A stretch of DNA of 64,000 bases, from assembly GCA_021818945.1 (NCBI GenBank), contig JAKASV010000002.1, forward strand, positions 721 to 64,720, read 5' to 3'. The notes under the pieces were generated by a model. That model saw nothing but the letters and a program-made list of their open reading frames with translations, searched no databases and had not been told where the DNA came from. The translations under genes and the position numbers were made by a program. Below, in pieces: positions 3,979 through 41,718 of this stretch; position 1 is the stretch's first letter, and each line of letters starts with the position of its first letter. This stretch comes from a bacterium (lineage in GTDB: Bacteria; Babelota; Babeliae; Babelales; Vermiphilaceae).

Positions 3979-4729
3979 ATTTGAGTTCGCAGGCGGACAA
4001 ACATGGCATCCTCTGGGTTGGCTCGGACTTACTCATCCGTTTTTTTCCTTAGAATCATCCCAAGTCCATCTCATTGTACAAACATGGATTATTTTAGGCA
4101 TACTTTTTTTACTATGTCTTCCCGTACGATGGCTACTGAAAAAAAAATTCGGCATCCCTCGCTATCTTATCCTTTCGTTCGTGGACACCTTCATAGGCTT
4201 ATGTAAACAGGCGATGGGCACACTCATATTTTCGCACCTTGCATTCGTTACTTCAATTTTTATATTTATTTTATTCTGCAACGTAATCTCAATTGTTCCT
4301 TGGATGGAAGAACCGACATCGAACCCCTACACAACATTTGCCATGGGCATAATCTCATTTTTATATGTTCAATTTAATGGTATTCGTGCTCATGGTATTA
4401 AGGGTTATTTGAAAGAATATATTGAACCATTCTTTGTCATGGCACCGCTTCATCTTATCGGAAAACTTGCAAGCATTATTTCTATGTCATGTCGTCTCTG
4501 GGGAAATATTTTTGGTGGCGCAATTATTACAAATATGTATCAAGGCCTTATCAGAAGCCATCTTATTCTCCAAATAGTAGGCTTGGGATTGGGTCTTAAT
4601 TTTGTGATTCTTTTCTTTTTCGGTCTTTTTGAAGGATTTTTACAGGCATTCGTATTTACTATGCTCAGTTTAACCTACTTGTCTATTGCAATAACGCAAG
4701 AAGAACAAGGACACGGAGCGTCAACATGA
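3941..4729 (+). CDS. atpB: F-type ATPase Fo subunit a
   Basis: A polytopic protein with the subunit-a signature around the essential Arg: SMSCRLWGNIFGGAII (compare RLFGNxxAG). The likely true start is ATG 3971 (MNEFEF..). Confidence 0.8.
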   Translation: MLLFSIKDIPMNEFEFAGGQTWHPLGWLGLTHPFFSLESSQVHLIVQTWIILGILFLLCLPVRWLLKKKFGIPRYLILSFVDTFIGLCKQAMGTLIFSHLAFVTSIFIFILFCNVISIVPWMEEPTSNPYTTFAMGIISFLYVQFNGIRAHGIKGYLKEYIEPFFVMAPLHLIGKLASIISMSCRLWGNIFGGAIITNMYQGLIRSHLILQIVGLGLGLNFVILFFFGLFEGFLQAFVFTMLSLTYLSIAITQEEQGHGAST

Positions 4730-5688
4730 TAGAACTATCTGAATGTTTTCATTATGGAACCATAGCCGGCATTGTAGGACTTAGTTCCTTTGGTGCTGGA
4801 ATCGGGCAAGGACTTACCGGACGCGCTGCTATGCAGGCAATGGATATTCAACCCCAAGCGAGAGGAGACATTGGGCGCAATGCTATCATGGGAATGGCTC
4901 TTATAGATACTGCGTCCATTTTATGTTTAACTATCGCATTCATGATGGTATTTGGTTCGCGAAGCGTCGAAACGGTCCTATACACAAATATTGCTGACCT
5001 TGGCATTCTCTTTGCACTTTCTTTACCGGGATTTGCTATTGGTATAGCCTCGGCTATGCCTGCCCGCGAGGCTTGCCTGGCAATTGCTCGCCAACCATTT
5101 TTTTCAACAAAAATTTCACGCTTTATGCTCATTTGTCAATCGGTCATTCAAACACCCATCATTTTTGGATTTATTATAGCTCTGCTTATAAAAAACGGTT
5201 CCAGCACATGCACTAATGTAATGGATAGCCTGCGTTATGTGGCAACTGGCATTGCTGTTGGCGTAAGTGCTATTGGTCCTATTATTGGACTGGGGATATT
5301 CGCAAAAACAGCTTGCCGTGGTCTTGGTATTAACAGACAATCCTATGCTTCATTGCTGACTCTAACATTTATAAGCAATGCTATTATAGAAACCCCTATT
5401 GTTCTTTCACTTGTTATCGCGCTTGTGTTACTAGGCGTACCCATTGACCCCAATAATGTACTTGATGGTATACGCGTACTAGCTGCCTCAATGTGTGTTG
5501 GTATAGGAACGTTTGGTCCGGGTATCAGTTCAGGACGAGCATCCGCAGTCGCCTGTCATGAAATCGCAAAAAATCCTGCCGTCTATAGTACCCTATCCAA
5601 GGTAAGCATTTTTGCTCAAGGTCTTATCGATACCTGTGCTATTTACGCTTTTTTAATAGCACTTTCAATTTTAATAATGGTAAAATAA
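4726..5688 (+). CDS. fused proteolipid made of four tandem F/V-type c-subunit hairpins (320 aa)
   Basis: There are four repeats of Gly-rich helix, polar loop and second helix. The Gly-rich helices are GAGIGQG, GFAIGIA, AIGPIIGLG and FGPGISSG. The loops are DIQPQARG, ARQPFF, INRQSY and AKNPAVY. The ion-site positions read ALIDTA, SVIQTP, AIIETP and GLIDTC. Confidence 0.75.
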   Translation: MIELSECFHYGTIAGIVGLSSFGAGIGQGLTGRAAMQAMDIQPQARGDIGRNAIMGMALIDTASILCLTIAFMMVFGSRSVETVLYTNIADLGILFALSLPGFAIGIASAMPAREACLAIARQPFFSTKISRFMLICQSVIQTPIIFGFIIALLIKNGSSTCTNVMDSLRYVATGIAVGVSAIGPIIGLGIFAKTACRGLGINRQSYASLLTLTFISNAIIETPIVLSLVIALVLLGVPIDPNNVLDGIRVLAASMCVGIGTFGPGISSGRASAVACHEIAKNPAVYSTLSKVSIFAQGLIDTCAIYAFLIALSILIMVK

Positions 5689-16925: not shown

Positions 16926-19754
16926 ATGGCCATGGTTAAATATATTTCAGCTCTATGCATGTTAGCTTTGCTATCACTAAAACTTGAAGCAATGAGCCTT
17001 CTTAATATTTACAATTCATCTCAAGACACCCCAGTTTACTACAAAATCGGTGATGAACCTTGGGATGTTTTAGATGGAAACAACTCTAGTGCGATGTGGC
17101 AAGTCCCTTGTAACGGATATACTTTTATAAGATTTTCAGCCAATCAGCAAGGATCGCGACCTACTTACTTCGTATTGCCTCCACAACTACCATACCAACA
17201 GGCAGAGCCTGATGATGACTCAGCTGGCAGCAGTACAATGAACTGCGTTATCCAAGTCCACATAAGTGCCATGGCAGGGAAAGTCATAATTGCTCCGCAA
17301 CAAGAAGGACCTGTCGCAGGACAAACAACCTCTGGGCTCTCGTTGGAAAATAATATTACCGCCGCAATCATTGAGCAGTACGTGTCCTTGGCGGAAGCTA
17401 TCGCTTCCATTCAAGTACCTTCAAAAGATCCGGATTCTGTTGCTGCCGACCAAGCGCCGGCACCTTCCACACAAGCAGTCAGCACCGAGCAATCAGAAGA
17501 AAATTCTATTAGAAGCATGTGGAAATCTATACGTGCGTTTCTACCAGCAGACAAAAGCCTTACCTCGACCATTACGAGTTATATGAAGAATATCCTAAAA
17601 AATCATGAAGATTTCATGGATGGAATTGAAGGAGATCTTTCTGCTATCCTTGCAAAATGGCAAAATATCTTATTGGAAAATGCACCTGCAGCAACTGCTT
17701 GGTCAAAACTAACGCCAGTACAAAAGTTATTTTACTTAAAACTATTTGTTTTTATGAATTCAATTAAGAAAACTACAAAAACCCTGGTCATCACGGACGG
17801 TTCTCAGGTAGACACCTCAGCCTCCCTCATGCCCCCACATACACCTCCTGTAACAGATATTAAACTTGATCTTAAAGTTTTCCCTAAAAGCATTTTGTTA
17901 AAAACACAGCCTTCCTGGTTAACTTCTTGGTTGTCAGAAACTGGATACACAAAAAAAGGCAGGATCTTGCACGCATTATGGGACGATGTGGTCGAAATAA
18001 AAAATTTTATTTATGGCGATCCGAAGATTCCATATTTTCCCAATTTACTAGCTACTAATCAATTAGTTATGCCAAAGGATTTGACAGCTCAAGCGTTTTA
18101 TAAAAAATTGATGCATGACAAGGTCATTTTAATAACATTCAGACAGGCAACTATTGGATTGACCATAAACGAGACGTATGCTCACGAGCCCCCCTATTTG
18201 CGACATGAAATGGATCACTTAATTAAGCAAAACGATCATTTAATTGATCATGTCACTCAACTATGTCGTATCAAGTTAATACCTTTAGGGAACTTTGCAG
18301 TTGACATGGAGGCAGAGCGCAAACAAAGACCGGAAGAAGATACTATGACCCGATTTGCTAAATTTTATTTACGTAATCTGCTTTCCTCCACAATAAGCCC
18401 TTTTTTAAAGCTCACGTTAATCGCCTTCTGGGGCGGAGCCGATAATACTACATTTACTTTTCAGTCAGGTAAAACTCAATGGAAATTTTCATCAGAAATA
18501 ATAGATTCAGCAAAAGCTTGCGCTGAACAACATGCCAAATTAAGTTCAATCAAGGGAAAAGCGCCTGCTGACTCCGCTTCCCCAAGCGACGCTCCCGCTG
18601 CATCTCCAGGAGCACTATTACTACCTGCTGACTCAGCTGCTACTTACACAAGCGGTGCCCCAACCACAACTTCAGGAGCACATTTACTACCTACTGATGG
18701 TTCTCCAAAGGCTAGTCAAGCAGATGTGGCAGCTTTGATGCTTGATCAAAAAACTGATTTAGGAACAGAAATAATCGATCAAGTAGTTGATCTTGTAGCA
18801 ACTGGAAAATCTGGATCGTATATTGTTGATGCTACACCTGAATTGATACACAATAATCTAGCTCAAGCCGCCACATTCCTTGCAGCAAAAGCAACAATGA
18901 TAGATGCTGAGGGTGGCAATAGTACATTGGCACAAGAATTGTTGCTGCATGCTCAATATGCTGCCGATTGCTTTAAAACCTTCCATACATGCATGTCAAA
19001 AAAAGCAGGAGAAAAATTAAGTGGTATCGCTAAACATAGTCCATTTTTGCAAATTTTACAAAATTTACGTGATGGTCATGCAACAAAAAAAGAAAAAAAT
19101 GCTGACATTGCTGATACTAAATATAGTGGCATTGTACAAGAATGGTGTGCTTATATAGGGTGTAAATCTGGCGATCTAGCTTTTGACATATTAACTGTCA
19201 TACTGTTACACAAGGCCGGCGCTGGCACCTCGGGAACAACTCCACCTGCTGCAGCAACTGCAACTGGTGGCGCCGGTACTTCGATGGCTGTTGCAACATC
19301 AATTGCCGATGGAGCTATTGTCATTGTAGATAGCGTTAAAGTTGGTATGGCAATGGCATCTGGGCCAAAGGATGCAGACGGGTCTGGCTCAGATACAAAA
19401 ACGCCTGATATAACCGATAAAGTAAGTTCTTCACTATCCGCTGATGATTTAGCCGAAATAAATAAAGTAAAAATTATTTCAAAAGACGATTTACCACATA
19501 TTTTTAGAAATAAGATCGGTCACTTTATTGATAACACGGAAGCTAACCGGCAATTATTGATAACAACTGCCTCAGATTCAAAAAATTTTTTAGGAAAATG
19601 CGAAAAGGGTTCATTTTGGTATGCTAGAGTTTTGACAGATGATACTCAAATTTGGGCTGAAGTTAGAAATGGTAAAATACGAAATGGCGGCCTTAATTTG
19701 ACCCCAAAAAATTTTAATACAAAAACAGGGCTTAAAAAGCATATTAAATCTTAA
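16926..19754 (+). CDS. secreted polymorphic-toxin-like protein: signal peptide, unassigned N-terminal region, conserved pre-toxin segment, variable C-terminal tip A
   Basis: AAGGAAG RBS and signal peptide MAMVKYISALCMLALLSLKLEA. Ala/Pro/Ser/Thr-rich linkers are present. The 3' 600 bp recurs downstream (see repeats). The tip after GPKDAD is unique (..DLPHIFRNKIGHFIDN..WAEVRNGKIRNGG..). Confidence 0.7.
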   Translation: MAMVKYISALCMLALLSLKLEAMSLLNIYNSSQDTPVYYKIGDEPWDVLDGNNSSAMWQVPCNGYTFIRFSANQQGSRPTYFVLPPQLPYQQAEPDDDSAGSSTMNCVIQVHISAMAGKVIIAPQQEGPVAGQTTSGLSLENNITAAIIEQYVSLAEAIASIQVPSKDPDSVAADQAPAPSTQAVSTEQSEENSIRSMWKSIRAFLPADKSLTSTITSYMKNILKNHEDFMDGIEGDLSAILAKWQNILLENAPAATAWSKLTPVQKLFYLKLFVFMNSIKKTTKTLVITDGSQVDTSASLMPPHTPPVTDIKLDLKVFPKSILLKTQPSWLTSWLSETGYTKKGRILHALWDDVVEIKNFIYGDPKIPYFPNLLATNQLVMPKDLTAQAFYKKLMHDKVILITFRQATIGLTINETYAHEPPYLRHEMDHLIKQNDHLIDHVTQLCRIKLIPLGNFAVDMEAERKQRPEEDTMTRFAKFYLRNLLSSTISPFLKLTLIAFWGGADNTTFTFQSGKTQWKFSSEIIDSAKACAEQHAKLSSIKGKAPADSASPSDAPAASPGALLLPADSAATYTSGAPTTTSGAHLLPTDGSPKASQADVAALMLDQKTDLGTEIIDQVVDLVATGKSGSYIVDATPELIHNNLAQAATFLAAKATMIDAEGGNSTLAQELLLHAQYAADCFKTFHTCMSKKAGEKLSGIAKHSPFLQILQNLRDGHATKKEKNADIADTKYSGIVQEWCAYIGCKSGDLAFDILTVILLHKAGAGTSGTTPPAAATATGGAGTSMAVATSIADGAIVIVDSVKVGMAMASGPKDADGSGSDTKTPDITDKVSSSLSADDLAEINKVKIISKDDLPHIFRNKIGHFIDNTEANRQLLITTASDSKNFLGKCEKGSFWYARVLTDDTQIWAEVRNGKIRNGGLNLTPKNFNTKTGLKKHIKS
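19203..19379 (+). repeat. conserved pre-toxin segment, copy a (inside the main gene; long form 18777..19379)
   Basis: It encodes GTSGTTPPAAATATGGAGTSMAVATSIADGAIVIVDSVKVGMAMASGPKDAD. Confidence 0.9.
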
Positions 19755-19768
19755 AAGAGGTCAATTGC

Positions 19769-20164
19769 GTGGAAATATCATATATAGAAGCACTAAAAGC
19801 AATGGAAATATTTTTAGATGAATATTATTCAAGAGAAAAAAAAGATGATATCGGTTTATTGCTCAGCGATATAAGCCTAGATACTTTTATCGAAGAAAAA
19901 ACAGCCGATCCTGCTGCCTGGGAAGATTGGGAAGAAGCTATAGAATCGGTCAAAAAGGACAGTAAAAATAAGACCTTAACAGAAATAGAAAGTTTCGCAG
20001 CAATGATAGCTTTTGTTAAAGCATTTGGCCAACGTATTAACTCGCAAGAAATTAAAGAATTATTGCTTGAAATATTACACGAAGACGTAAACAATGCATC
20101 ATCCTTGTCAAAAGCAAGATTATTTTGGAAACAATGCTTAGAAAGAGTTAAGATTTCTGAATAA
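19769..20164 (+). CDS. candidate cognate immunity protein for tip A
   Basis: A 131-aa acidic cytoplasmic protein that starts 14 nt after the toxin stop. The call is positional. Confidence 0.5.
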   Translation: MEISYIEALKAMEIFLDEYYSREKKDDIGLLLSDISLDTFIEEKTADPAAWEDWEEAIESVKKDSKNKTLTEIESFAAMIAFVKAFGQRINSQEIKELLLEILHEDVNNASSLSKARLFWKQCLERVKISE

Positions 20165-20267
20165 CCCTGAATGCCTGTACTTGTACAAATGCTTTTAGTT
20201 TACGAACTTAATAATATTACGAGAATAGGCCTAGGATCCAATCTGTCGACCCAGCTTTATTTTAACC

Positions 20268-20450
20268 GCCATATTGTTACACAAAGTTGGCGCGGGCACC
20301 TCGGGAACAACTCCACCTGCTGCAGCAACTGCAACTGGTGGCGCCGGTACTTCGATGGCTGTTGCAACATCAATTGCCGATGGAGCTATTGTCATTGTAG
20401 ATAGCGTTAAAGTTGGTATGGCAATGGCATCTGGGCCAAAGGATGCAGAT
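20268..20450 (+). repeat. conserved pre-toxin segment, copy b
   Basis: Near-identical DNA to 19203..19379 and in frame with tip B. Confidence 0.9.
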
Positions 20451-20750
20451 AAGACTGGCGCAAGCGCAGCAAGCTCAGGGCCTGACGGGGATGCTGGTAC
20501 AAGCACTTCAGCAGGTAGCGACAAGGATTCAAAAAAGTCGCATCCTGAAGTTAAAAGCATGAAAGAATTTTTTCAGTTGCCATTTGGCAAGGTGCTTCGA
20601 CAAAATAGCCAGTCAATGAAGAAATACTACCAAGGGCAAAAAATGTACAAAATTACCGCAAAAATTCCTGAGACGTCTCTAAAAATAGGTGATATATTTT
20701 ATTTAGATGCCTCAGAAAAAAACCATCTTGAAGTTTTTGATGCTCAAGGG
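20274..20750 (+). pseudogene. orphan toxin module B, 5' part (interrupted by IS21 at 20750/20751)
   Basis: ..GPKDADKTGASAASSG..KSHPEVKSMKEFFQLPFGKVLRQ..IFYLDASEKNHLEVFDAQG, then IS sequence. The intact paralog at 24646..24921 shows the expected continuation. Confidence 0.8.
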
Positions 20751-20946
20751 TATAGAACGTCAATCATTTTGTCTGGTCGGCGACAATCATTTTGTCTGGT
20801 TTTTAACCCGAATTTATAGTCATAAATATCATTTCATTCCAATGTTTTTGTTGAAAAATTAATAAGAATCCTAAAATAAGCCTCCATTTGAAGGTAGTAA
20901 AAAGTCACTTAACAATGCCTGAGCCTCCTGTAAAGCATGCTTCTAC

Positions 20947-21699
20947 TTATTGGCCCATGCTATTCAACTTTGAGGCTCTTCTATAACTCTGTTCGTTAAT
21001 ATTGATGATTGTTGCATGGTGCACAAGTCTGTCTATTGCAGCAACGGCCATAATATTACTAGGGAAAATAGTGTCCCACTGTTCAAAAGATTGATTAGAT
21101 GTAATTAATAGGCTTTTTGATTCGTACCGATCAGCAATAAGTTCAAATAAGACGCTTGTTTCTGCTTCACTTTTTTTGACATAGCCAATGTCATCAAGAA
21201 TCAGTAATTGGTATCGAGCAAGTTTTGCCAAAAAATCAGATAACTTGCGTTGATTGTAGGCCTCTTGGAGTTTTTGAACCAAAACGGTTGTTTTGACAAA
21301 ATACACTCGCGCACCTTTTTCAATAAGTCGACGACCAATAGCAGCTGCCAAATGAGTTTTACCTACTCCGCTTGGGCCAAAAATAAGAAGATTTTGAGCC
21401 TCTGTAATCCATTGCGTATTTTCGGCAAACGCACTTATTTGTGCTGCATTTATAGAGGATGTTTTGCTGAAATCAAAAGCATCTAGCGCTTTGCCTACGG
21501 GCAGCTTTGCTTCGGCAATATTCCGTTTGATACGGTCCTGTTCTTTGCTCGCCATTTCTTTTTCACACAATGTTGCCAAATATTCAGGATAAGTCCAATG
21601 CTGGGCTTGGGCTTGTTGAGCAACCTCTTCCCAGTATGCGCGCATGACAGGAAGGCGAAGTTGTTTAAGGGAAAAAGGGAGAGTTAGGCTATTAACCAT
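20947..21699 (-). CDS. istB: IS21 helper ATPase IstB
   Basis: Walker A GPSGVGKTH and Walker B LLILDDIGY. The ATG at 21699 overlaps the istA stop by 8 nt. The ORF-track start at 21771 is an upstream extension. Confidence 0.9.
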   Translation of the reverse strand: MVNSLTLPFSLKQLRLPVMRAYWEEVAQQAQAQHWTYPEYLATLCEKEMASKEQDRIKRNIAEAKLPVGKALDAFDFSKTSSINAAQISAFAENTQWITEAQNLLIFGPSGVGKTHLAAAIGRRLIEKGARVYFVKTTVLVQKLQEAYNQRKLSDFLAKLARYQLLILDDIGYVKKSEAETSVLFELIADRYESKSLLITSNQSFEQWDTIFPSNIMAVAAIDRLVHHATIININEQSYRRASKLNSMGQ

Positions 21700-23218
21700 G
21701 TTGTGCTCCTTGCATGCTATTTGGGATAAGATCATTGTAGGCAGCAAGTGGATGCTGTTGAGTTCGAACAATAGGCACTACATTTTTTGCTTGCTTGAAT
21801 TGATATTGTAGATCGTGGAGACTGAGCTTCTTTTCTTGTTGGATGAGACAAATTACAGTACGAGCCAACTCTTCTTCGCAATGCTCTGTTGCTGCAAGAT
21901 GAATCAGTCCGACAATGAATTTGCAAGCATCTTTATCATTCATAATACGATCTACATACTCCCAAATATAGCGATAATCAGCATTAGGAAATAGTTCATC
22001 ACGGAATCGGCAACCTCTAAAGGCGCCTGGTTTTTTCGCAAGCCCTTCAATAAGATGGCTATAGTTTATTTGTCGTGCCCGTCCATTATGCGGAGGTACA
22101 AACTTTCGCTCAAGAGTGATAACATGGACATGACCCAGATAACACTCAAGCTTATCGCTGTATATTCTCACATGAAGTTTTTCTCCAATGAGCCTGCTAT
22201 ATACCGAATAAGTAACACGCCTAACATCGATCACGCTCGAACTGCTTACAACAACCGTAGTCTCGGCATAGTCAGCTGCTTTGGTAGCTGGCAAAGGCAA
22301 CAAATGTTCCCGTTCAGTTTCTAAGTCTTTACAAGCATGTTTATTGTGCTCTTTTAGAACTGCATGAATAAAATCTCTGTATTCATCAAGTGATGAGAAA
22401 TCATTACTGGAACGAATTTTCAAGCTTTGATAAACTCGTTTTTTAAAATGACCATGTGATGATTCAATAGAACCATTTTCGTGCGATTTTCCTGGGTTGA
22501 TACGAGTAGCTTGCATATTAAAGTGCTCTACAAAAGCCTTGTAGCGCTCTGTAAGATCTTCCGAGGCTACCTTGTTCAGGTTTTTGTATGAGGCAGAAAG
22601 ACTATCGGTACGATGTTTTTTTGGGGCGCCTCCAATATATAATAACGCTTCTTGAAGTCCTTGAGCAAAAGCTTCATAAGGTTCTCCAGACCCTCTGAAT
22701 ACTTGCACATAATTAAAACCGCTATATGGCAAGCGAAAATGATAAAAAATATGCTCAAATACCTCTCCCTTAATAGTAACCTGAATTTCATTGGGATGAG
22801 TAAAATCGGATATCCCTAGATCGCCAGGTTCATGTTTTTGTCTAAACATAACTTCTTTTTCTGGTCCAAATAAAGCCCTCCATCTTTTTATTCTACGTTG
22901 TAATGTGCGCAGGGTTGAATCGGCAAATTTTCCAGGGAATTTTTTTTGTAGTTCTTCAAGTATAAAGGTCGCCTCAAAAACTCCATCTTTAAGCCATGCA
23001 ATTATGTTTTGTTCCCATACATCTGCAAAAACATCATCCTTTGTTTTCCAGTTATGAGGGCTACCTTTTTGGTGTACATTGTTATCAATTCTGCTGCCTG
23101 TTCTCTCAGAGAATCCTGCTTTTGCAGCCGCTATTTTTTGGGGGCAGTCGTTTTGTCTATTATTCATGTAAAGAGCCTTTTGTTGGTCGGTCACCATTTC
23201 TTGATATGTCCTTTCCAT
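21692..23218 (-). CDS. istA: IS21 transposase IstA
   Basis: 508 aa with an N-terminal HTH (KIAAAKAGFSERTGSRI) and an rve-type DDE core. The gene order and overlap are typical of IS21. Confidence 0.9.
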   Translation of the reverse strand: MERTYQEMVTDQQKALYMNNRQNDCPQKIAAAKAGFSERTGSRIDNNVHQKGSPHNWKTKDDVFADVWEQNIIAWLKDGVFEATFILEELQKKFPGKFADSTLRTLQRRIKRWRALFGPEKEVMFRQKHEPGDLGISDFTHPNEIQVTIKGEVFEHIFYHFRLPYSGFNYVQVFRGSGEPYEAFAQGLQEALLYIGGAPKKHRTDSLSASYKNLNKVASEDLTERYKAFVEHFNMQATRINPGKSHENGSIESSHGHFKKRVYQSLKIRSSNDFSSLDEYRDFIHAVLKEHNKHACKDLETEREHLLPLPATKAADYAETTVVVSSSSVIDVRRVTYSVYSRLIGEKLHVRIYSDKLECYLGHVHVITLERKFVPPHNGRARQINYSHLIEGLAKKPGAFRGCRFRDELFPNADYRYIWEYVDRIMNDKDACKFIVGLIHLAATEHCEEELARTVICLIQQEKKLSLHDLQYQFKQAKNVVPIVRTQQHPLAAYNDLIPNSMQGAQHG

Positions 23219-23316
23219 TTTAAGGGGTACGTATCAAGTTTATCTGTAAAATTAACTTTAATCTGGACCAGACAAAATGATTGTCGTCAACCAGACAGAA
23301 TGATTGTCGCACAATA

Positions 23317-23412
23317 CAAGGGGATATAAAAACAGTATTAAATCTTGATGGGACTGTCAATATCGCTAAAAGAGCGAAAGCTGTGAAACAAAATAGAAAA
23401 ATTAAGCTCTAG
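23317..23412 (+). pseudogene. orphan toxin module B, 3' part
   Basis: After the TSD the frame continues ..DIKTVLNLDGTVNIAKRAKAVKQNRKIKL*, matching NIKTVLNLDGTVNVKKSNAAKGRKIKI* of 24646..24921. Confidence 0.8.
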
Positions 23413-24152: not shown

Positions 24153-24247
24153 TGAATAGTCAAATTTTTAATAAACTCAATTCAATTGCCAATCACATAT
24201 GAGCACTCTAAAATCTACCCCTATTCGATATAGCCCGCTAAAGCCTA

Positions 24248-24534
24248 AAAAAATGCTGACATTACTAAAACAAAATATAGTGGCATTGTACAAGAATGGT
24301 GTGCTTACTTAGGATGCAAAGTTGGCGATCTAGCTTTTGACATAGCAACTGTCATATTGTTACACAAAGTTGGCGCGGGCACCTCGGGAACAACTCCACC
24401 TGCTGCAGCAACTGCAACTGGTGGCGCCGGTACTTCGATGGCTGTTGCAACATCAATTGCCGATGGAGCTATGGTCATTGTAGATAGCGTTAAAGTTGGT
24501 ATAGTAATGGCATCTGGGCCAAAGGATTGCAGAT
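24248..24534 (+). repeat. conserved pre-toxin segment, copy c (longer 5' extent, carries the +T lesion)
   Basis: Homology to the main gene runs from ..KNADI..YSGIVQEWCAY.. onward. It reads GPKDCR* because of an extra T at about 24528. Confidence 0.9.
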
Positions 24535-24645
24535 AAGACTGGCGCAAGCGCAGCAGGCTCAGGTACCGATGGGGATGCCGGTACAAGCACTTCAGCAGGA
24601 AAAGATAACAAAGATTCAAAAAAGTCGCATCCTGAAGTTAAAAGC

Positions 24646-24921
24646 ATGAAAGAATTTTTTCAGTTGCCATTTGGCAAGGTGCTTCGACAAAATAGCCAGT
24701 CAATGAAGAAATACTACCAAGGACAAAAAATGTACAAAATTACCGCAAAAATTCCTGAGACGTCTCTAAAAATAGGTGATATATTTTATTTAGATGCGCT
24801 AGAAAAGAACCATCTCGAAGTTTTTGATGCTCACGGAAATATTAAAACAGTTTTAAATCTTGATGGCACTGTAAATGTAAAAAAAAGCAATGCTGCAAAA
24901 GGCAGAAAAATTAAGATCTAG
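24646..24921 (+). CDS. orphan toxin tip B' (colicin-E3-like candidate), out of frame with its upstream conserved segment
   Basis: MKEFFQLPFGKVLRQ..IGDIFYLDALEKNHLEVFDAHGNIKTVLNLDGTVNVKK..RKIKI. No obvious SD sequence. Confidence 0.6.
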   Translation: MKEFFQLPFGKVLRQNSQSMKKYYQGQKMYKITAKIPETSLKIGDIFYLDALEKNHLEVFDAHGNIKTVLNLDGTVNVKKSNAAKGRKIKI

Positions 24922-25058: not shown

Positions 25059-25601
25059 ATGCATATTTCATCTTTTGAGCAATCAAATAAAAAAAAAATA
25101 CGTGGGCTCAAAAAAAAGTGTCGCGCTATGGTAGAAGCTCTCATTGCACAGACTTCTGAGTTTCCTATAGATTATAACTCAGAAGAATATTGGCACTATC
25201 ATTTGCCTGTAGCACAATCATTTATTGATTCAAAACACACTCCGCAATCAGTAAGACGATTATGCATACAGACAATGATAGATAGAACACAATTTTTATC
25301 TCAACATAAACCAAAAAACGCAAAAAGCTGCCGTGTTCTATGTCTAGTTTGTCTTCCAGATTTATGGTCCTCTGTTATAACAATTTTTTCTAGTCAAAAT
25401 TACTTTATTCATTTTTTTGATCGCAACAACCCATGGCAACGATGGACTCCTTTAATTCACAAAGACATAGCTAAAGAATACAATCTAATTATTCCAAGCA
25501 ATTTTCAAGTCAAAAGCTACAAACATGAATGCTTTGATGATGATAATCCCAGTATTGTAACTTATGTTGGAGAAATTTGGGCTATAGGCGAACTTGAATA
25601 A
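25059..25601 (+). CDS. hypothetical protein, candidate immunity for tip B'
   Basis: 180 aa with no signal peptide, 137 nt downstream of tip B'. It is unrelated to the 243-aa ORF that follows tip B. Confidence 0.4.
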   Translation: MHISSFEQSNKKKIRGLKKKCRAMVEALIAQTSEFPIDYNSEEYWHYHLPVAQSFIDSKHTPQSVRRLCIQTMIDRTQFLSQHKPKNAKSCRVLCLVCLPDLWSSVITIFSSQNYFIHFFDRNNPWQRWTPLIHKDIAKEYNLIIPSNFQVKSYKHECFDDDNPSIVTYVGEIWAIGELE

Positions 25602-25692: not shown

Positions 25693-26763
25693 ATGATGAT
25701 AATAAAAGCGCCAAAACTCTATTTTTTACTTGATTCAGCAATTGATTTGGGATCGCGAATCAGTGATCAAGTAGTTGATCTTGTAGCAACTGGAAAATCT
25801 GGATCGTATATTGTTGATGCTACACCTGAATTGATACACAATAATCTAGCTCAAGCCGCCACATTCCTTGCAGCAAAAGCAACAATGATAGATGCTGAGG
25901 GTGGCAATAGTACATTGGCACAAGAATTGTTGCTGCATGCTCAATATGCTGCCGATTGCTTTAAAACCTTCCATACATGCATGTCAAAAAAAGCAGAAGA
26001 AAAATTAAGTGGTATCGCTAAACATAGTCCATTTTTGCAAATTTTACAAAATTTACGTGATGGTCATACAACAAAAAAAGAAAAAAATGCTGACATTACT
26101 GATACTAAATATAGTGGCATTGTACAAGAATGGTGTGCTTATATAGGGTGTAAATCTGGCGATCTAGCTTTTGACATATTAACTGTCATACTGTTACACA
26201 AGGCCGGCACTGGCACCTCGGGAACAACTCCACCTGCTGCAGCAACTGCAACTGGTGGCGCCGGTACTTCGATGGCTGTTGCAACATTAATTGCCGATGG
26301 AGCTATTGTCATTGTAGATAGCGTTAAAGTTGGTATGGCAATGGCATCTGGGCCAAAGGATGCAGATAAGACTGGCGCAAGCGCAGCAAGCTCAGGGCCT
26401 GACGGGGATGCCGGTACAAGCACTTCAGCAGGTAGCGACAAGGATTCAAGCAAGAGTCATCCTGTAGCAAATAATATGAAAGAGGTTTTTGAAAAAACAC
26501 CTTTCGGAAAAAAATTAAAATCTGTGGTACAATCAACTGGTAAATTTAGCACCAAAAATGAACTCATTTATAAAGTAACAGCAGACTTTGGTCATTCAGA
26601 TATCAAAAAAGGCGACTATATCCATTTTGATAAGCTCCACAAATGTGAATTAGAGGTTTATGATAAAACTGGACAATCGAAGGCCGTAGTATGGTTGGAT
26701 GGTATAGTTAACCAACAAAAAACAGATAAGGTATTAGACGGTAAAAGAACTATCAAAGTCTAA
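25693..26763 (+). CDS. orphan toxin module C1 (long conserved 5' part plus tip C, in frame)
   Basis: Positions 25765..26367 align without indels to 18777..19379 of the main gene, and I count five aa differences by eye. A divergent tip then follows: MKEVFEKTPFGKKLK..DYIHFDKLHKCELEVYDKTG..RTIKV. Confidence 0.75.
   Translation: MMIIKAPKLYFLLDSAIDLGSRISDQVVDLVATGKSGSYIVDATPELIHNNLAQAATFLAAKATMIDAEGGNSTLAQELLLHAQYAADCFKTFHTCMSKKAEEKLSGIAKHSPFLQILQNLRDGHTTKKEKNADITDTKYSGIVQEWCAYIGCKSGDLAFDILTVILLHKAGTGTSGTTPPAAATATGGAGTSMAVATLIADGAIVIVDSVKVGMAMASGPKDADKTGASAASSGPDGDAGTSTSAGSDKDSSKSHPVANNMKEVFEKTPFGKKLKSVVQSTGKFSTKNELIYKVTADFGHSDIKKGDYIHFDKLHKCELEVYDKTGQSKAVVWLDGIVNQQKTDKVLDGKRTIKV
25765..26367 (+). 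repeat. conserved pre-toxin segment, copy d (603-bp long form)
   Basis: See 25693..26763. The offset to the main gene is a constant 6988 nt across the whole block. Confidence 0.9.
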
Positions 26764-26772
26764 AACAAGGCA

Positions 26773-27441
26773 ATGAACGTGGATGCAATAAGCAGGGTAA
26801 TTAAATTAGTACAATATCTTGATAAAGAATCGGGCCTGATTCTCGACAAACCATTACTTGCAGCCCTTGAAATTATGCCTCAATGTATCAATAATTACGA
26901 AACTAATATGAGTAAAGCATTAGATGAATTGCAAATAGTTGACAAAGAAGATTTTGCTAGAATAGATGAACTTTTCTTTGATATAAAAATTGAATTGTCT
27001 CTTTATGCATCAGATATGCAAAAATTAAAATATTTCTGGCGAAAATTATTTAATGCTAGGTTTAATAACCAGTCTAAATATAAAAAAAGAGAGACTGGAC
27101 AAACCGATGAATTTGAGAGACACGATTTTATTGACATTATTTTTAAACGAATCACTGCTACAATAGATACTTTTAACGTTGTGGATTCTGAACATATTTT
27201 TCGTAAAAAAGATTTACGGACTTTGCAGGAGAATTCTGATGAAATATGTCAAGCTCTTAATAATTTGGATAATTTAATAAATGAACGTTTCATATCTAAA
27301 AATTGTTGTGAAGATATTGAGGATCTCATAGATGCAATGATCATGATAAGTTACGATATAAATAACGTAACCTATGCAATTGATTTTTTGCTAAACATTC
27401 TGACAAAGATTGTAGATTTTTATAATAGAAAAGCCTACTAA
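26773..27441 (+). CDS. candidate immunity protein ImmC1 (222 aa)
   Basis: It starts 10 nt after tip C1. It belongs to a four-member paralog set (26773, 28018, 30033, 31275). Confidence 0.55.
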   Translation: MNVDAISRVIKLVQYLDKESGLILDKPLLAALEIMPQCINNYETNMSKALDELQIVDKEDFARIDELFFDIKIELSLYASDMQKLKYFWRKLFNARFNNQSKYKKRETGQTDEFERHDFIDIIFKRITATIDTFNVVDSEHIFRKKDLRTLQENSDEICQALNNLDNLINERFISKNCCEDIEDLIDAMIMISYDINNVTYAIDFLLNILTKIVDFYNRKAY

Positions 27442-27465
27442 ATATAAAGCATTATTCCTGGCAAT

Positions 27466-27613
27466 CGGGAACAACTCCACCTGCTGCAGCAACTGCAACT
27501 GGTGGCGCCGGTACTGCGATGGCTGTTGCAACCTCTATTGCCGATGGAGCTATGGTCATTGTAGATAGCGTTAAAGTTGGTATGGCAATGGCATCTGGGC
27601 CAAAGGATTGCAG
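27466..27613 (+). repeat. conserved pre-toxin segment, copy e (+T lesion)
   Basis: Same core; reads ..GPKDCR* with an extra T at about 27609. Confidence 0.9.
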
Positions 27614-27723
27614 ATAAGACTGACACAAGCTGAGCAAGCTCAGGGCCTGACGGGGATGCGGGTACAAGCGCTTCGGCAGGCAGCGACAAGAATTCAAGCA
27701 AGAGTCATCCTGTAGCAAATAAT

Positions 27724-28008
27724 ATGAAAGAGGTTTTTGAAAAAACACCTTTCGGAAAAAAATTAAAATCTGTGGTACAATCAACTGGTAAATTTAGCCT
27801 CAAAAATGAACTCATTTATAAAGTAACAGCAGACTTTGGTCATTCAGATATCAAAAAAGGCGACTATATCCATTTTGATAAGCTCCACAAATGTGAATTA
27901 GAGGTTTATGATAAAACTGGACAATCGAAGTCCGTAGTATGGTTGGATGGTATAGTTAACCAACAAAAAACAGATAAGCTAGACCCTAAAAGAACTATCA
28001 AAGTCTAA
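27724..28008 (+). CDS. orphan toxin tip C2
   Basis: 94 aa and near-identical to tip C1 except for the C-terminal tail (..KTDKLDPKRTIKV). Confidence 0.6.
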   Translation: MKEVFEKTPFGKKLKSVVQSTGKFSLKNELIYKVTADFGHSDIKKGDYIHFDKLHKCELEVYDKTGQSKSVVWLDGIVNQQKTDKLDPKRTIKV

Positions 28009-28017
28009 AACAAGGCA

Positions 28018-28686
28018 ATGAACATGGCTGCAATAAGCAGGATAATTAAATTAGCACAATATCTAGATAAAGAAGCAGGGCAGGTTCTCGATAAATCATT
28101 GCTTGCAGCCCTTGAAATTATGCCTCAATGTATCAATAATTACGAAACTAATATGAGTAAAGCGTTAGATGAATTGCAAATAGTTGATAAAAAAGATTTT
28201 GCTAGAATAGTTGAGTTGTTCTTTAATATAAAGATTGAGCTATCTCTTTATGAATTAGATATGAAAAAATTGAGTTATTCATGGCTGAGATTATTAAAAG
28301 ATGATTTTACTGAAAATCGTATTAGCAGGCAAAAGGAGATTGTAGGAGTCAATAATTGTGGCACAGATAATCACATAGATATTCTTTTTCAACGTATTGG
28401 CGATGCAATAATCGTATTTAACATTGTTAATTCAGAACATATTTTTCATAAAAAAGACTTAAAAGCTTTGCAGGATAATTCTGATGAAATGTGTCAAGCC
28501 CTTAATAATTTGAATAATTTTATTAATGAATATTTCATATCAAAAAATGATTGTGAATACCTTGACGACCCGATAAGTCCAATGCGTTGGATAAGTTACG
28601 ATATAAATAACGTAACCTATGCAATTGATTTTTTGCTAAACATTCTGACAAAGATTGTAGATTTTTATAATAGAAAAGCCTGCTAA
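28018..28686 (+). CDS. candidate immunity protein ImmC2
   Basis: Paralog of ImmC1 with conserved ends and a divergent middle. Confidence 0.55.
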   Translation: MNMAAISRIIKLAQYLDKEAGQVLDKSLLAALEIMPQCINNYETNMSKALDELQIVDKKDFARIVELFFNIKIELSLYELDMKKLSYSWLRLLKDDFTENRISRQKEIVGVNNCGTDNHIDILFQRIGDAIIVFNIVNSEHIFHKKDLKALQDNSDEMCQALNNLNNFINEYFISKNDCEYLDDPISPMRWISYDINNVTYAIDFLLNILTKIVDFYNRKAC

Positions 28687-28697
28687 TTCAGTCGCTG

Positions 28698-28810
28698 ATG
28701 GCGCCGGTACTTCGATGGCTGTTGCAACATCAATTGCCGATGGAGCTATTGTCATTGTAGATAGCGTTAAAGTTGGTATGGCAATGGCATCTGGGCCAAA
28801 GGATGCAGAC
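28698..28810 (+). repeat. conserved pre-toxin segment, copy f (short, in frame)
   Basis: GAGTSMAVATSIADGAIVIVDSVKVGMAMASGPKDAD. Confidence 0.9.
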
Positions 28811-29200
28811 GGGGCTGTTACGAGCGCAGCAGGCTCAGGTTCTGCTGGAGATGCCGGTACAAGTTCGGACCAAGTTCACGAGCCACATTTAGTAAAATGG
28901 ACAAATCACGGCTTTAAACATTTTCCACCTAAAAGTGCAGCTTGGAAAGACATAGTTTCATCGACAAAGGGAGGCCCTGCAAAATATCATCCAACAGTAG
29001 CTATAGAAAAAATCGAGAGATTAGTCTGGGAAAAAGGTAAACTGTGCACTAATGGAAAACCATGGAAAGTAATGAAATTTACAAATATCATAGGTGCAAA
29101 AAATGGTTTAGAAACCACTTGCATTAGAGTTGAATGCAGCGGCAAGACGATACATGGTCATCCGATTACTTTTGACGAATATTTAAAACTCATAAATTAA
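28715..29200 (+). CDS. orphan toxin module D (unassigned His-rich tip)
   Basis: After GPKDAD comes GAVTSAAGSGSAGDAGTSSDQVHEPHLVKWTNHGFKHFPPK..IRVECSGKTIHGHPITFDEY. The ORF-track Met is the conserved internal Met of the repeat. Confidence 0.6.
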   Translation: MAVATSIADGAIVIVDSVKVGMAMASGPKDADGAVTSAAGSGSAGDAGTSSDQVHEPHLVKWTNHGFKHFPPKSAAWKDIVSSTKGGPAKYHPTVAIEKIERLVWEKGKLCTNGKPWKVMKFTNIIGAKNGLETTCIRVECSGKTIHGHPITFDEYLKLIN

Positions 29201-29522: not shown

Positions 29523-29557
29523 GGGTTAAAAAAAAGAAGCTAGAAACATCTATCATC

Positions 29558-29630
29558 GATGGAGCTATTGTCGTTGTAGATAGTGTTAAAGTTGGTAGGG
29601 CAATGGCGGCTGGGACAAAGGATTGCAGAT
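29558..29630 (+). repeat. conserved pre-toxin segment, copy g (shortest and most diverged, +T lesion)
   Basis: DGAIVVVDSVKVGRAMAAGTKDCR*. Confidence 0.8.
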
Positions 29631-30023
29631 AAGACTGGCGCAAGCGCAGCAGGCTCAGGTACCGACGGGGATGCCGGTACAAGCGCTTCAGCAGGCAGCG
29701 ACAAGGATTCAAGCAAGGGTCATCCTGTAGCAAATAATATGAAAGAGGTTTTTGAAAAAACACCTTTCGGAAAAAAATTAAAATCTGTGGTACAATCAAC
29801 TGGTAAATTTAGCCTCAAAAATGAACTCATTTATAAAGTAACAGCAGACTTTGGTCATTCAGATATCAAAAAAGGCGACTATATCCATTTTGATAAGCTC
29901 CACAAATGTGAATTAGAGGTTTATGATAAAACTGGAAAATCGAAGTCCGTAGTATGGTTGGATGGTATAGTAAACCAACAAAAAAAGTCAAAAATTGGTA
30001 AAACAAGAACTATCAAAGTCTAA
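29583..30023 (+). CDS. orphan toxin tip C3 (toxin domain from ATG 29739)
   Basis: ..ADKTGASAAGSGTDGDAGTSASAGSDKDSSKGHPVANNMKEVFEK..ELEVYDKTGKSKSVVWLDG..KTRTIKV. Confidence 0.6.
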   Translation: MLKLVGQWRLGQRIADKTGASAAGSGTDGDAGTSASAGSDKDSSKGHPVANNMKEVFEKTPFGKKLKSVVQSTGKFSLKNELIYKVTADFGHSDIKKGDYIHFDKLHKCELEVYDKTGKSKSVVWLDGIVNQQKKSKIGKTRTIKV

Positions 30024-30032
30024 AACAAGGCA

Positions 30033-30701
30033 ATGAACATGGCTGTAATAAGCAGGATAATTAAATTAGCACAATATCTAGATAAAGAAGCAGGGCAGAT
30101 TCTCGATAAATCATTGCTTGCAGCCCTTGAAATTATGCCTCAATGTATCAATAATTACGAAACTAATACGATCAAAGCATTAGATGCATTGCAAATAGTT
30201 GATAAAAAAGATTTTTCTAGAATAGTTGAGTTGTTCTTTAATATAAAGATTGAGCTATCTCTTTATGAATTAGATATGAAAAAATTGAGTTATTCATGGT
30301 TGAGATTATTAAAAGATGATTTTACTGAAAATCGTATTAGCAGGCAAAAGGAGATTGTAGGAGTCAATAATTGTGGCACAGATAATCACATAGATATTCT
30401 TTTTCAACGTATTGGCGATGCAATAATCGTATTTAACATTGTTAATTCAGAACATATTTTTCATAAAAAAGACTTAAAAGCTTTGCAGGAGAATTCTGAT
30501 GAAATGTGTCAAGCCCTTAATAATTTGAATAATTTTATTAATGAATATTTCATATCAAAAAATGGTTGTGAATATCTTGACGACCCGATAAGGCCAATGT
30601 TTTGGATAAGTTACGATATCGACAATGTAGCCTATGCAATTGACTTTTTGCTAAACATTCTGACAAAGATTGTAGATTATTACAGTCGAGAAGCCTACTA
30701 A
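30033..30701 (+). CDS. candidate immunity protein ImmC3
   Basis: Nearly identical to ImmC2. Confidence 0.55.
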   Translation: MNMAVISRIIKLAQYLDKEAGQILDKSLLAALEIMPQCINNYETNTIKALDALQIVDKKDFSRIVELFFNIKIELSLYELDMKKLSYSWLRLLKDDFTENRISRQKEIVGVNNCGTDNHIDILFQRIGDAIIVFNIVNSEHIFHKKDLKALQENSDEMCQALNNLNNFINEYFISKNGCEYLDDPIRPMFWISYDIDNVAYAIDFLLNILTKIVDYYSREAY

Positions 30702-30726: not shown

Positions 30727-30865
30727 GGAAACAACTCCGCTACTGTAGCTGATGGCGCCGGTACTTCGATGGCTGTTGCAACATCAATTGCCGATGGAGC
30801 TATGGTCATTGTAGATAGCGTTAAAGTTGGTATGGCAATGGCATCTGGGCCAAAGGATTGCAGAT
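30727..30865 (+). repeat. conserved pre-toxin segment, copy h (+T lesion)
   Basis: Same core with an extra T at about 30859. Confidence 0.9.
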
Positions 30866-30970
30866 AAGACTGGCGCAAGCGCAGCAGGCTCAGGTACCGA
30901 CGGGGATGCCGGTACAAGCGCTTCAGCAGGCAGCGACAAGGATTCAAGCAAGGGTCATCCTGTAGCAAAT

Positions 30971-31967: not shown

Positions 31968-31979
31968 TTCAGTCGCTGA

Positions 31980-32082
31980 TGGCGCCAGCACTTCGATGGC
32001 TGTTGCAACCTCTATTGCCGATGGAGCTATTGTCATTGTAGATAGCATTAAAGTTGGTATGGCAATGGCATCTGGACCAAAG
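31980..32082 (+). repeat. conserved pre-toxin segment, copy i (terminal remnant with no tip)
   Basis: GASTSMAVATSIADGAIVIVDSIKVGMAMASGPK, then unrelated sequence and a stop. Confidence 0.85.
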
Positions 32083-32216
32083 GTCCTCGTTCCACAGATT
32101 AAAAGACAGCTACCATAGCCCCCCTCCTGGCTTTGGCACTCATAATGTGATTAAAAACCAACCAGATCAAAAAAATGGTCAAATAACGGTATAATTAAAT
32201 TAAATTAATAATTTTA

Positions 32217-40590: not shown

Positions 40591-41718
40591 ATGTGTATGA
40601 AAGTTTTAACATTAACCCTTGACGCTCTTCGTCAAGCACTCACTATTTCTGATTTAACTAATCCCGCAGATGGTCCGCATGCCATGCAAATCATTCTAAA
40701 CGACATAATTCAAGCGCTTGAAACTGCCTGGCAATGCAATACGATGATGTATAGAGAGTCACCTATAGTCTCTATTGAAGATAACTACGATTGTCTTAAA
40801 TACCCCAAAGATGGGGCTTCACGTGAAGCCCGTTATACACGGTATGTCTGTCAAACTGCCCTATTGAGGACCCAGACATCAGCGATGATCCCTGCTGCAT
40901 TGCAATTGCTTGCAAAAAACCTCCCAACAGACTGTCTCATTGCATGTCCAGGGCTGGTGTATAGACGAGACTGCATAGATTGTATACACACAGGCGAGCC
41001 CCATCAAGTCGATTTATGGCGTGTGAGCTCCACAACAAAACTTAGGCAAAGCGACTTGCTTGATATGATAAAAATAATAGTACAAACAGCATTGCCAGGC
41101 TACCAATGGCGCACAGAACCACGTGTTCATCCCTATACCCTGAATGGTCTTCAGATTGATGTATGGTGCAATGGTCAATGGGTTGAGATTGGTGAATGCG
41201 GCTTGGCACATCCCGATATTTTGGCAGAGAACATTCCCCATGCTCAAAAACTTTCAGGATTGGCCTGTGGATTGGGCCTTGATCGCATATTAATGCTCCG
41301 CAAAGGCATAAAGGATATACGATTACTGCGCTCTACTGATCCAAGGGTGAAAATTCAAATGAATGATCTTTTACCTTATAAGGAAGTGTCCTGCATGCCC
41401 CCTGTCACACGTGATCTGTCAATCGTTATTGATCAAGACAAAACATTGGAAGATTTGGGCGATCGCGTCAGGGAATCCTTGGGATCTGATGCACCTATTG
41501 TTGAATGCATAACAGTTTTGTCACAAACACCCTACAAAGAGCTGCCAGAATGTGCAATTAAAAAACTTGGCATCACTGAAGGTCAAAAGAATCTCTTGGT
41601 ACGTATTATTCTAAGAGCTTTAGATCGCACATTAACCCGCGAAGAATGCAATCGCTATCGTGACCAGATTTATGCTGCAATCCATGAAGGATCGATATAC
41701 GATTGGACATCAAAATAA
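40591..41718 (+). CDS. PheS-family class II aminoacyl-tRNA ligase fused to a C-terminal FDX-ACB-like domain (monomeric, mitochondrial-type architecture)
   Basis: Motif 2 is GLVYRRDCIDCIHTGEPHQVDLW and motif 3 is GLACGLGLDRILMLRKGIKDIRLL. The C-terminus VTRDLSIVIDQD..LLVRIILRALDRTLTREECN resembles the PheT B8/FDX-ACB domain. The start is probably ATG 40597. Confidence 0.6.
   Translation: MCMKVLTLTLDALRQALTISDLTNPADGPHAMQIILNDIIQALETAWQCNTMMYRESPIVSIEDNYDCLKYPKDGASREARYTRYVCQTALLRTQTSAMIPAALQLLAKNLPTDCLIACPGLVYRRDCIDCIHTGEPHQVDLWRVSSTTKLRQSDLLDMIKIIVQTALPGYQWRTEPRVHPYTLNGLQIDVWCNGQWVEIGECGLAHPDILAENIPHAQKLSGLACGLGLDRILMLRKGIKDIRLLRSTDPRVKIQMNDLLPYKEVSCMPPVTRDLSIVIDQDKTLEDLGDRVRESLGSDAPIVECITVLSQTPYKELPECAIKKLGITEGQKNLLVRIILRALDRTLTREECNRYRDQIYAAIHEGSIYDWTSK

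Follow-up and report, generated by a model that had tools for sequence, protein, structure and literature searches.

Why should one piece of coding DNA recur nine times behind a single gene, with nearly every copy ending at the same place? The question arises in a 64,000-nucleotide (nt) stretch of a Vermiphilaceae genome (Babelota; GCA_021818945.1, contig JAKASV010000002.1), here called the window, in which a gene for a 942-amino-acid (aa) protein, the main gene, is followed by a series of shorter cassettes, each headed by a piece of the main gene that we term a handle. An initial annotation, made from the letters alone, had likened the shared end of these handles to the VENN and DPxGL demarcations of CdiA and Rhs proteins. 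Our analyses support that likeness: this is very probably a polymorphic toxin locus, in which the repeat marks the boundary between constant and variable sequence and the handles are retained 3′ ends of the constant region, available as substrates for homologous recombination.

Nine handles share a 3′ boundary

A repeat search of the window returned a 77-nt core in nine in-register copies, c1 to c9 (at 19295, 20366, 24449, 26283, 27530, 28726, 29545, 30780 and 32007), every one a direct repeat on the + strand. A 52-mer taken from the core occurred eight times with at most three mismatches, always on the + strand and in six cases without any mismatch (52/52), against an expectation of 0 from shuffled sequence; the ninth copy, c7, had an identity of only 84%. 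The repeat is real and cannot be a product of chance. Handle extents, taken from a BLASTN comparison of main-gene positions 18600-19520 with the window (Table 1), were ragged at the 5′ side, with copies of 98-651 nt, equivalent to 30-217 codons at the end of the constant region. The 3′ limit of homology lay at main-gene 19378-19391 in all copies except c9, which stopped at GPK (19371); the codons for GPKDAD occupy 19362-19379, and the common end thus falls on the last of these codons or a few bases past it. Nine copies with a shared end at GPKDAD and a shorter terminal copy were what the initial annotation had described, and its claim of variable 5′ extents stood as well, although the range it gave, about 73-603 nt, did not. 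The five residue differences that it had counted between the longest copy and the main protein were recovered in the well-aligned part.

The boundary is sharp. In a 15-nt sliding plot, identity to the main gene fell from 90-100% to background within 15-30 nt, a step rather than a gradual decay. The cliff exists against the main gene only and not among the orphan copies: six of these (c2, c3, c4, c5, c7 and c8) remained alike for about 80 nt past GPKDAD, along a linker reading KTGASAA..GDAGTS.SAGSDKDS. The sequences flanking the repeat had been described as unrelated tips, which holds for comparisons with the main gene and fails among the orphans, where six share the linker and four share a tip. 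Two strings at the junctions between cassettes had been reported to alternate; each has two exact occurrences, at the positions first given, confirming a higher-order duplication in which a two-cassette unit with alternating junctions was copied.

Tips and their downstream genes

The sequences beyond the handles fell into three families: tip A, carried by the main gene; tips B, B′ and C together; and tip D. A search with tip A gave 507 representative proteins at E<=1e-10, with matches mostly in C-terminal regions of proteins of many lengths, two of which (P0080 and P0093) match RHS_repeat strongly and are confirmed RHS_repeat proteins. Tip D matched, over 100 residues (E 8e-32), the C-terminal toxin of a PAAR-Rhs protein from Salmonella bongori (PDB 8qjc), whose structural study predicts an RNase fold and reports a requirement for the immunity protein during expression. 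Tips B′ and C share 42% identity (E 2e-18), and tip C is present on four cassettes that are mosaics of one another. By homology, the tips are toxin domains, and searches of Pfam and NCBIfam returned nothing for the tips or for most of the genes behind them. The AlphaFold model of tip A had a predicted local distance difference test score (pLDDT) of 94, and comparison of its fold with the PDB gave no significant match; the best hits, the RelE-like domain of Cami1 (E 0.13) and HigB (E 2.2), offer only a hint that tip A may be a RelE/BECR-type RNase.

The genes that follow the tips are of five types (131 aa; 243 aa; 180 aa, with DUF3916; 222/230 aa, in four copies; and 104 aa), and all eight of their open reading frames (ORFs) are intact. 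Three tip/gene pairings, those of A, B′ and C, are conserved on unrelated contigs. Because these pairings recur across genomes, the downstream genes behave, as judged from sequence, as cognate immunity genes.

Tips B and B′ have 96% DNA identity over their first part (20521-20754 versus 24608-24841) and 79% at the end (23317-23372 versus 24832-24887). This divergence, together with the unrelated immunity genes of the two cassettes (243 aa versus DUF3916), suggests that recombination may also take place inside the toxin domain.

Damage to the orphan cassettes

The main gene and its immunity gene are followed by seven orphan tip/immunity cassettes and then by the bare terminal handle, c9. In c3, c5, c7 and c8 the reading frame is shifted precisely where handle meets linker, through one additional T (GGATTGCAG in place of GGATGCAG), and the frameshifted c3 sequence is identical in an independent assembly (L001). 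Since tip B′ follows the additional T in one of these cassettes and tip C in the others, the insertion either spread between handles or predates the tip differences. The IS21-family element within tip B retains an intact 6-bp target duplication and occupies the same position in L001, and the tip C of c8 is broken further by a 7-nt insertion. Two of the seven orphans are in frame, undamaged and ready for a swap: c4, with 651 nt of homology and tip C, and c6, with tip D. The array today is largely a store of immunity genes. A scan of this AT-rich DNA for promoters and terminators was uninformative (74 sites, against 56 +/- 9 in shuffles).

Table 1. Coordinates of the toxin locus within the window. 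Handle rows give the matching main-gene positions.
Feature	Position	Strand	Remarks
Full-length gene of the predicted polymorphic toxin, 942 aa	16926-19754	+	ORF list
Pre-toxin (constant) domain, residues ~613-818	18762-19379	+	HMMER matches span query 613-828
c1 core, in main gene	19295-19371	+	77 nt
Linker (19380-19460) and tip A (~19461-19745)	19380-19754	+	Motif HIFRxxxGH...NR...W...W..VRNG.I.NGG.N.
Putative tip A immunity gene, 131 aa	19769-20164	+	132-aa homologue after tip-A-type orphan in L084, E 3e-18
c2 handle	20240-20462	+	= 19165-19391; 223 nt, in frame; leads into tip B
IS21-family element in tip B (istA 508 aa, istB 274 aa)	20751-23316	-	CAAGGG target duplication 20745-20750, 23317-23322
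Tip B remainder	23323 to stop codon 23410-23412	+	3′ of IS21
Putative tip B immunity gene, 243 aa	23421-24152	+	By position; unrelated to tip C immunity gene
c3 handle	24247-24546	+	= 19093-19391; 300 nt; +1 T at ~24527; then tip B′
Tip B′ ORF	24646-24921	+	After c3
Putative tip B′ immunity gene, 180 aa, DUF3916	25059-25601	+	Pfam E 6e-40; 68%-identical gene after tip-B′-type orphan in L084
ORF with c4 handle and intact tip C	25693-26763	+	ORF list
c4 handle	25729-26379	+	= 18741-19391; 651 nt, 96.5% identity, gapless, in frame
Putative tip C immunity gene (c4), 222 aa, first of four paralogues	26773-27441	+	30% identity to gene after tip C in L082, E 1e-24 (222/223 aa)
c5 handle, junction type 1	27458-27614	+	= 19222-19378; +1 T at ~27608; then tip C
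c5 tip C ORF	27724-28008	+	ORF list
Putative c5 immunity gene	28018-28686	+	Follows tip C
c6 handle, junction type 2	28695-28817	+	= 19264-19386; in frame; then tip D
c6 ORF with intact tip D	28715-29200	+	ORF list
Putative tip D immunity gene, 104 aa	29208-29522	+	By position
c7 handle	29545-29642	+	= 19295-19391; 98 nt, degraded (84%); +1 T at ~29623; then tip C
Putative c7 immunity gene	30033-30701	+	Follows tip C
c8 handle, junction type 1	30739-30877	+	= 19254-19391; +1 T at ~30858; then tip C
Putative c8 immunity gene, 230 aa	31275-31967	+	Follows broken tip C
c9 terminal handle, junction type 2	31976-32083	+	= 19264-19371; ends at GPK; no tip or immunity gene after it

A pre-toxin domain conserved among relatives

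The main protein opens with a signal-peptide-like stretch (residues 1-22) and a conserved N-terminal domain (about 23-185); behind these come a central region, the pre-toxin domain, a linker and tip A. Its start (MAMVKYISALCMLALLSLKLEA/M) has, by inspection only, the n-h-c layout of a signal peptide; the homologous N-termini of P0045 and P0049 look alike, and a 1799-aa protein encoded on L082, a 123-kb metagenomic contig, carries a lipobox (SLVAC). All three of these proteins have the N-terminal domain. P0049 (L083 8990-11257), a 755-aa paralogue, comes from a metagenome in which this organism is also present (ERZ27237336). It carries the shared N-terminal domain (residues 2-185) and the W..L.P.QKLFYLK module, with neither a pre-toxin domain nor a toxin, and its MurJ/ABC-transporter neighbourhood is syntenic with that of the toxin-bearing 1799-aa gene of L082 (3309-8708).

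No Pfam or NCBIfam family matched the main protein, a scan of genome contigs with it gave no relative, and among 5.8 billion proteins the whole chain found a single near-identical cluster (the 940-aa P0001). Low-complexity words swamped the word-based protein searches, which gave 1 and 5 matches, and it was exhaustive HMMER that revealed the family: about ten proteins share main-protein residues 613-828. Carriers of the pre-toxin domain are the 1799-aa protein and two orphans of L082, together with P0009, P0011, P0012, P0017, P0018, P0021, P0061 and P0159-P0161. Scans of metagenome contigs with the pre-toxin alignments found nothing. The family consensus, from alignment A1, is EPKYxGxxQEWCAxAGC...VADG...VK.G..MA.G.GP[EQK][QD], and the domain is composed of a helical part (...GNTTFAQELLEGAQYAAECxKTFG...), the EPKYxGxxQEWCAxAGCKxGD element and an Ala/Val/Gly-rich part, VADG....VK.G..MA, usually ending in GP[EQK][QD]. 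In the main protein it is the source of all handles and ends in a hydrophobic Ala/Val/Gly-rich segment followed by GPKDAD.

In the relatives, whose pre-toxin regions have 25-42% protein identity to that of the window, the domain leads into a Gly/Ser-rich linker and then into at least eight different tips. An equivalent GP[KQE][DQ] motif ahead of variable tips, for which the initial annotation had proposed a search, was therefore found. One member ends in a Pfam Ntox35 tip, the sole match among 12 members scanned (E<=0.01). Relatives also form orphan arrays. The 1799-aa protein of L082 combines the same N-terminal and pre-toxin domains, the latter ending in LLMATGPQDKD, with tip C and an immunity gene, and the two orphans downstream of it both start inside the handle. 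The DNA homology of this gene to the second orphan ends about 13 codons past GPQD, at the end of a short linker, and the sequence shared within the L084 subfamily likewise runs through the linker. The conserved domain therefore ends at the motif, and the precise recombination boundary differs slightly from one lineage to another.

Modelling of residues 600-942 by AlphaFold gave a pLDDT of 45, which says nothing reliable about the pre-toxin domain. Against PDB sequences, the pre-toxin profile produced a weak, sub-threshold match (E 0.023; profile positions 41-116, about 18880-19110) that pairs the helical first half of the domain with the MIT domain of Vps4B.

The hydrophobic segment

The initial annotation had also suggested that the conserved peptide could be a membrane-inserting or translocation helix, an idea that our data do not support. 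The best 19-residue Kyte-Doolittle mean in the segment was 1.56, against a usual cut-off of 1.6; of four relatives scored, three gave 1.1-1.4 and the fourth, the L082 protein, 2.10. Two Asp and one Lys lie within the segment, whose AlphaFold pLDDT was about 22. A conserved transmembrane helix is not supported. Rhs and other carriers of tip-A-type toxins (P0072, P0080, P0037, P0052 and P0076) have a Gly/Ala-rich hydrophobic stretch between a DPxGL-type motif and the toxin, and HMMER alignments of tip-A-type carriers reach back over the handle region, from query residues 762-775 onward. Given this parallel in Rhs proteins, where the stretch follows DPxGL, the segment could have a softer role, as a flexible, protease-accessible or membrane-active element.

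Probable exchange between handles and the behaviour of assemblies

The handle variants are mosaic. A four-gamete test on a 113-nt segment of eight copies identified three mutually incompatible blocks of sites (column 240; columns 271 and 274; columns 292 and 346), meaning that there were at least two exchanges between handle copies, or else homoplasy or parallel mutation. The perfect agreement of six handles over 52 nt, set beside the 25-42% identity of relatives, argues for shared recent ancestry or gene conversion rather than for selection on the protein; the frameshifted orphans, moreover, cannot be under protein-level selection, yet they have kept the DNA.

P0001 (L001 10001-12823; 940 aa, GCA_027321735.1) was considered as a natural recombinant between the main gene and tip B and was rejected as an assembly chimera caused by repeat collapse. 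Outside the handle its contig is 100% identical to the window, and it lacks exactly 1071 bp, the tip A/immunity unit; its handle has two single-nucleotide polymorphisms typical of c4. Because the missing unit turns up in the same assembly on its own contig of 1212 bp, which corresponds to window 19224-20435 (1212 = 1071 + k 141), P0001 is a chimera and not a recombinant. Short-read assemblies break or mis-join at handles, as in L087 and L088, both of which start at window 32017, in the terminal copy. Independent assemblies nonetheless matched the window at 100% at either end of the array: L001 covers the main gene and continues up to where c4 starts, and L086 covers the c8 immunity gene and c9. 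L086 starts at window 30968, and its 78,897-nt contig should by arithmetic reach about 29377, across c7 and c8. Site-specific inversion, as in a shufflon, was rejected too: every copy is a direct repeat on the same strand, and no recombinase is encoded nearby apart from the IS21 transposase.

Why the handles may be retained

A mechanism consistent with these observations would run as follows. The toxin, with its signal-peptide-like N-terminus, would presumably be exported by the Sec pathway; the main gene joins that N-terminus to a lineage-specific delivery region, the pre-toxin domain, a flexible linker and an exchangeable tip, with the cognate immunity gene next to it. The seven downstream cassettes would be promoterless; each keeps a 5′-truncated piece of pre-toxin coding sequence, and the common 3′ end of these pieces is simply the point at which constant meets variable sequence. 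Such pieces may act as substrates of RecA-type homologous recombination. A cassette acquired by transfer could push the resident tip into a downstream position, and a crossover of the main gene with an orphan handle would place a new tip behind the delivery region, as experiments have demonstrated for Rhs orphans; unequal exchange between handles would duplicate cassettes.

Several points weigh against the view that the handles serve tip exchange. The export route and signal-peptide cleavage were judged by inspection only, the sole apparent recombinant (P0001) is an assembly artefact, leaving no recombinant documented, and the order of c4-c6 rests on one assembly. A crossover inside any of the four handles with the additional T would cut the protein short, IS21 interrupts the tip of c2, and that of c8 bears a second frameshift; a working fusion is thus impossible for five of the seven orphan tips. 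A possible, if doubtful, alternative is that the handles are scars of past displacement and that the array is kept as an immunity archive for protection from neighbours' toxins, switching having ended. The contrast between eight intact immunity ORFs and five of seven disabled orphan tips (through IS21 in c2, the extra T in c3, c5, c7 and c8, and the 7-nt insertion in c8) would be expected of such an archive, as would the decay of the c7 handle to 84% and the failure to find a recombinant. Six handle cores that are identical over 52 nt are harder to reconcile with it, the incompatible site patterns show exchange between copies, and c4 (651 nt of homology) and c6 are still fully swap-ready. The archive and the exchange of tips through retained handles overlap, and the difference between them is one of degree.

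The repeats might instead reflect selection on the peptide, which would be delivered with each tip and would either insert into the membrane or aid translocation, or else provide a cleavage site (between GPKD and AD). We consider this unlikely. The Ala/Val/Gly-rich composition, the family-wide conservation of GP[KQE][DQ] and the preceding VADG...VK.G..MA, the comparable stretches before tip-A-type toxins in Rhs proteins over which HMMER alignments extend, and the proposal that pre-toxin domains are processing sites (PMC3482391) all give it some appeal, but the hydropathy (1.56), the Asp and Lys content, the pLDDT of about 22 and the lack of a Pfam pre-toxin match do not. Moreover, frameshifted orphans without a start codon keep identical DNA on which no peptide-level selection could act, and in relatives the DNA cliff follows the linker and not the motif, so that a functional peptide may hold for the main protein yet leaves the repeats unexplained. 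That the orphans are independently expressed small genes of toxin/antitoxin type, with the shared 5′ sequence as a common N-terminal coding part, is very unlikely: c4 (25693-26763) and c6 (28715-29200) are open from an ATG and several tip domains begin with Met (MKEVFEK, MKEFFQL), but signal peptides are absent from all orphans, the handles begin at irregular points next to unrelated sequence, a frameshift separates handle from tip in four copies, and the promoter scan was uninformative. Strain variants stitched in tandem by the assembler could likewise give an array, and short-read assemblies of this organism do break or mis-join at the handle; such an artefact is nevertheless scarcely credible, given different tips and five unrelated immunity types across the cassettes, independent assemblies that match both array ends at 100%, and 1212-bp contigs that match c1-c2 exactly. 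Retention of constant-region ends for homologous recombination is the explanation that we prefer.

Genomic neighbourhood

The window is chromosomal, with 38% G+C. Serine hydroxymethyltransferase and glycosyltransferase genes lie upstream of the locus, and the array is followed by an uncharacterised 488-aa gene and then by genes for EF-P, NusB and ribosomal protein S1. In a scan of genome contigs, the serine hydroxymethyltransferase matched Aquificota and Clostridia with no more than 58% identity, by way of one common peptide pattern. The window also encodes a Fic-domain protein and two ankyrin-repeat proteins (44895-45650, 46767-47540 and 59231-60283), and the toxin arrays of relatives (L084 and L095) adjoin a gene for a TLC ATP/ADP translocase. 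The ankyrin and Fic proteins and the translocase neighbours suggest a host-associated, possibly intracellular lineage. The organism also occurs in samples SRR13205817, SRR13205814, SRR33270670 and DRR872537 and in ERZ27237336 and ERZ27237313, and the strain in SRR33270670 is 97.9% identical.

Two further genes in the window have unusual features. At 40591-41718 (+), a 375-aa phenylalanyl-tRNA synthetase has the class II core and an FDX-ACB domain on one chain, which we take to be a monomeric, mitochondrial-type architecture that would be unusual for a bacterium. At 4726-5688 (+), beside the gene for ATP synthase subunit a, a 320-aa ORF has two ATP-synt_C matches, at a length well beyond that usual for an F-ATPase c subunit; fusion or duplication of c subunits could account for this, as could an ORF call that is too long.

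Implications

The phenomenon itself is ordinary for polymorphic toxin loci; what is new is the delivery region, the pre-toxin domain and the pairing of intact immunity genes with mostly disabled spare toxins, four of them by the same frameshift. The locus shows a polymorphic toxin layout in a lineage in which such systems have barely been described, and the EPKYxGxxQEWCAxAGC ... GP[KQE][DQ] signature provides a usable definition of a new pre-toxin domain for finding cassettes. Eight intact immunity genes beside disabled toxins are a data point for orphan arrays as mainly immunity stores, and the co-occurrence of immunity-linked toxins with ankyrin and Fic proteins suggests competition between bacteria that share a host. 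There is also a practical warning, namely that the public protein record P0001 (940 aa) is a chimera produced by repeat collapse at the handle. A bolder interpretation would be that the locus represents an undescribed, lineage-restricted toxin family of uncultivated host-associated bacteria that probably live inside cells, in which the hydrophobic Ala/Val/Gly-rich and GP[KQE][DQ] module accompanies each tip as a shared translocation or cleavage device and the additional T is a selected 'safety catch' that silences spare toxins while the immunity genes stay active; we regard this combination as quite improbable.

Comparison with known systems

In the published model of polymorphic toxin loci, orphan modules can undergo homologous recombination with the full-length gene through the constant sequence that they have kept (PMC4436062; PMC3482391). 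The features by which such loci are recognized recur here: one constant region on at least eight varied tips, tips A and D on unrelated delivery regions, an N-terminal secretion signal (by inspection), putative immunity genes downstream and orphan modules with 3′-end homology. None of the described pre-toxin models (PT-VENN, PT-TG, PT-HINT and DUF637) matched the main protein at E<=1 or any of the 12 family members at E<=0.01.

As in CdiA, the constant region ends at a short conserved motif and is followed by variable C-terminal toxin/immunity pairs, and the orphans keep some upstream constant sequence; however, the CdiA features TPS, FHA repeats and PT-VENN gave no Pfam match on the main protein, and there is no cdiB among the neighbours. 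Rhs orphans of E. coli and Salmonella LT2 similarly retain part of the core's 3′ terminus, with a sharp break in identity at the demarcation motif (DPxGL in Rhs), and tips A and D occur on Rhs proteins too. In Salmonella, experiments have shown that an Rhs orphan can recombine with the main gene (PMC3967940). Unlike Rhs proteins, the main protein has no YD/RHS repeats (RHS_repeat gave no match at E<=1), Rhs core, PAAR, VgrG or aspartyl autoprotease motif, and its N-terminus resembles a Sec signal rather than a delivery domain of the type VI secretion system.

Among Sec-dependent polymorphic toxins (Zhang et al. 2012), MicroscillaN proteins and the Amoebophilus APD1/APD2 proteins also combine a signal peptide (here a signal-peptide-like start, with a lipobox in the L082 relative), a constant domain restricted to one lineage and polymorphic C-termini in host-associated bacteria (PMC3482391), and no homology to the MicroscillaN, APD1 or APD2 domains was detected. 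The Amoebophilus proteins reportedly lack immunity genes and are host-targeted, whereas the conserved immunity partners here argue for use by bacterium against bacterium.

By architecture, the closest known system is that of the MafB/MafI islands of pathogenic Neisseria. Both have a signal peptide (here signal-peptide-like), a lineage-restricted N-terminal region, a variable C-terminal toxin with an adjacent immunity gene, and numerous orphan modules of C-terminal toxin and immunity gene that retain homology to the constant region (PMC4436062). Unlike MafB, the system described here belongs to a different host lineage, its constant region ends in GP[KQE][DQ] after an Ala/Val/Gly-rich segment, it has no adjacent mafA-like partner, and DUF1020 (MAFB-N) gave no Pfam match on the main protein at E<=1. 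The locus is analogous to CdiA, Rhs and MafB and a member of none of them.

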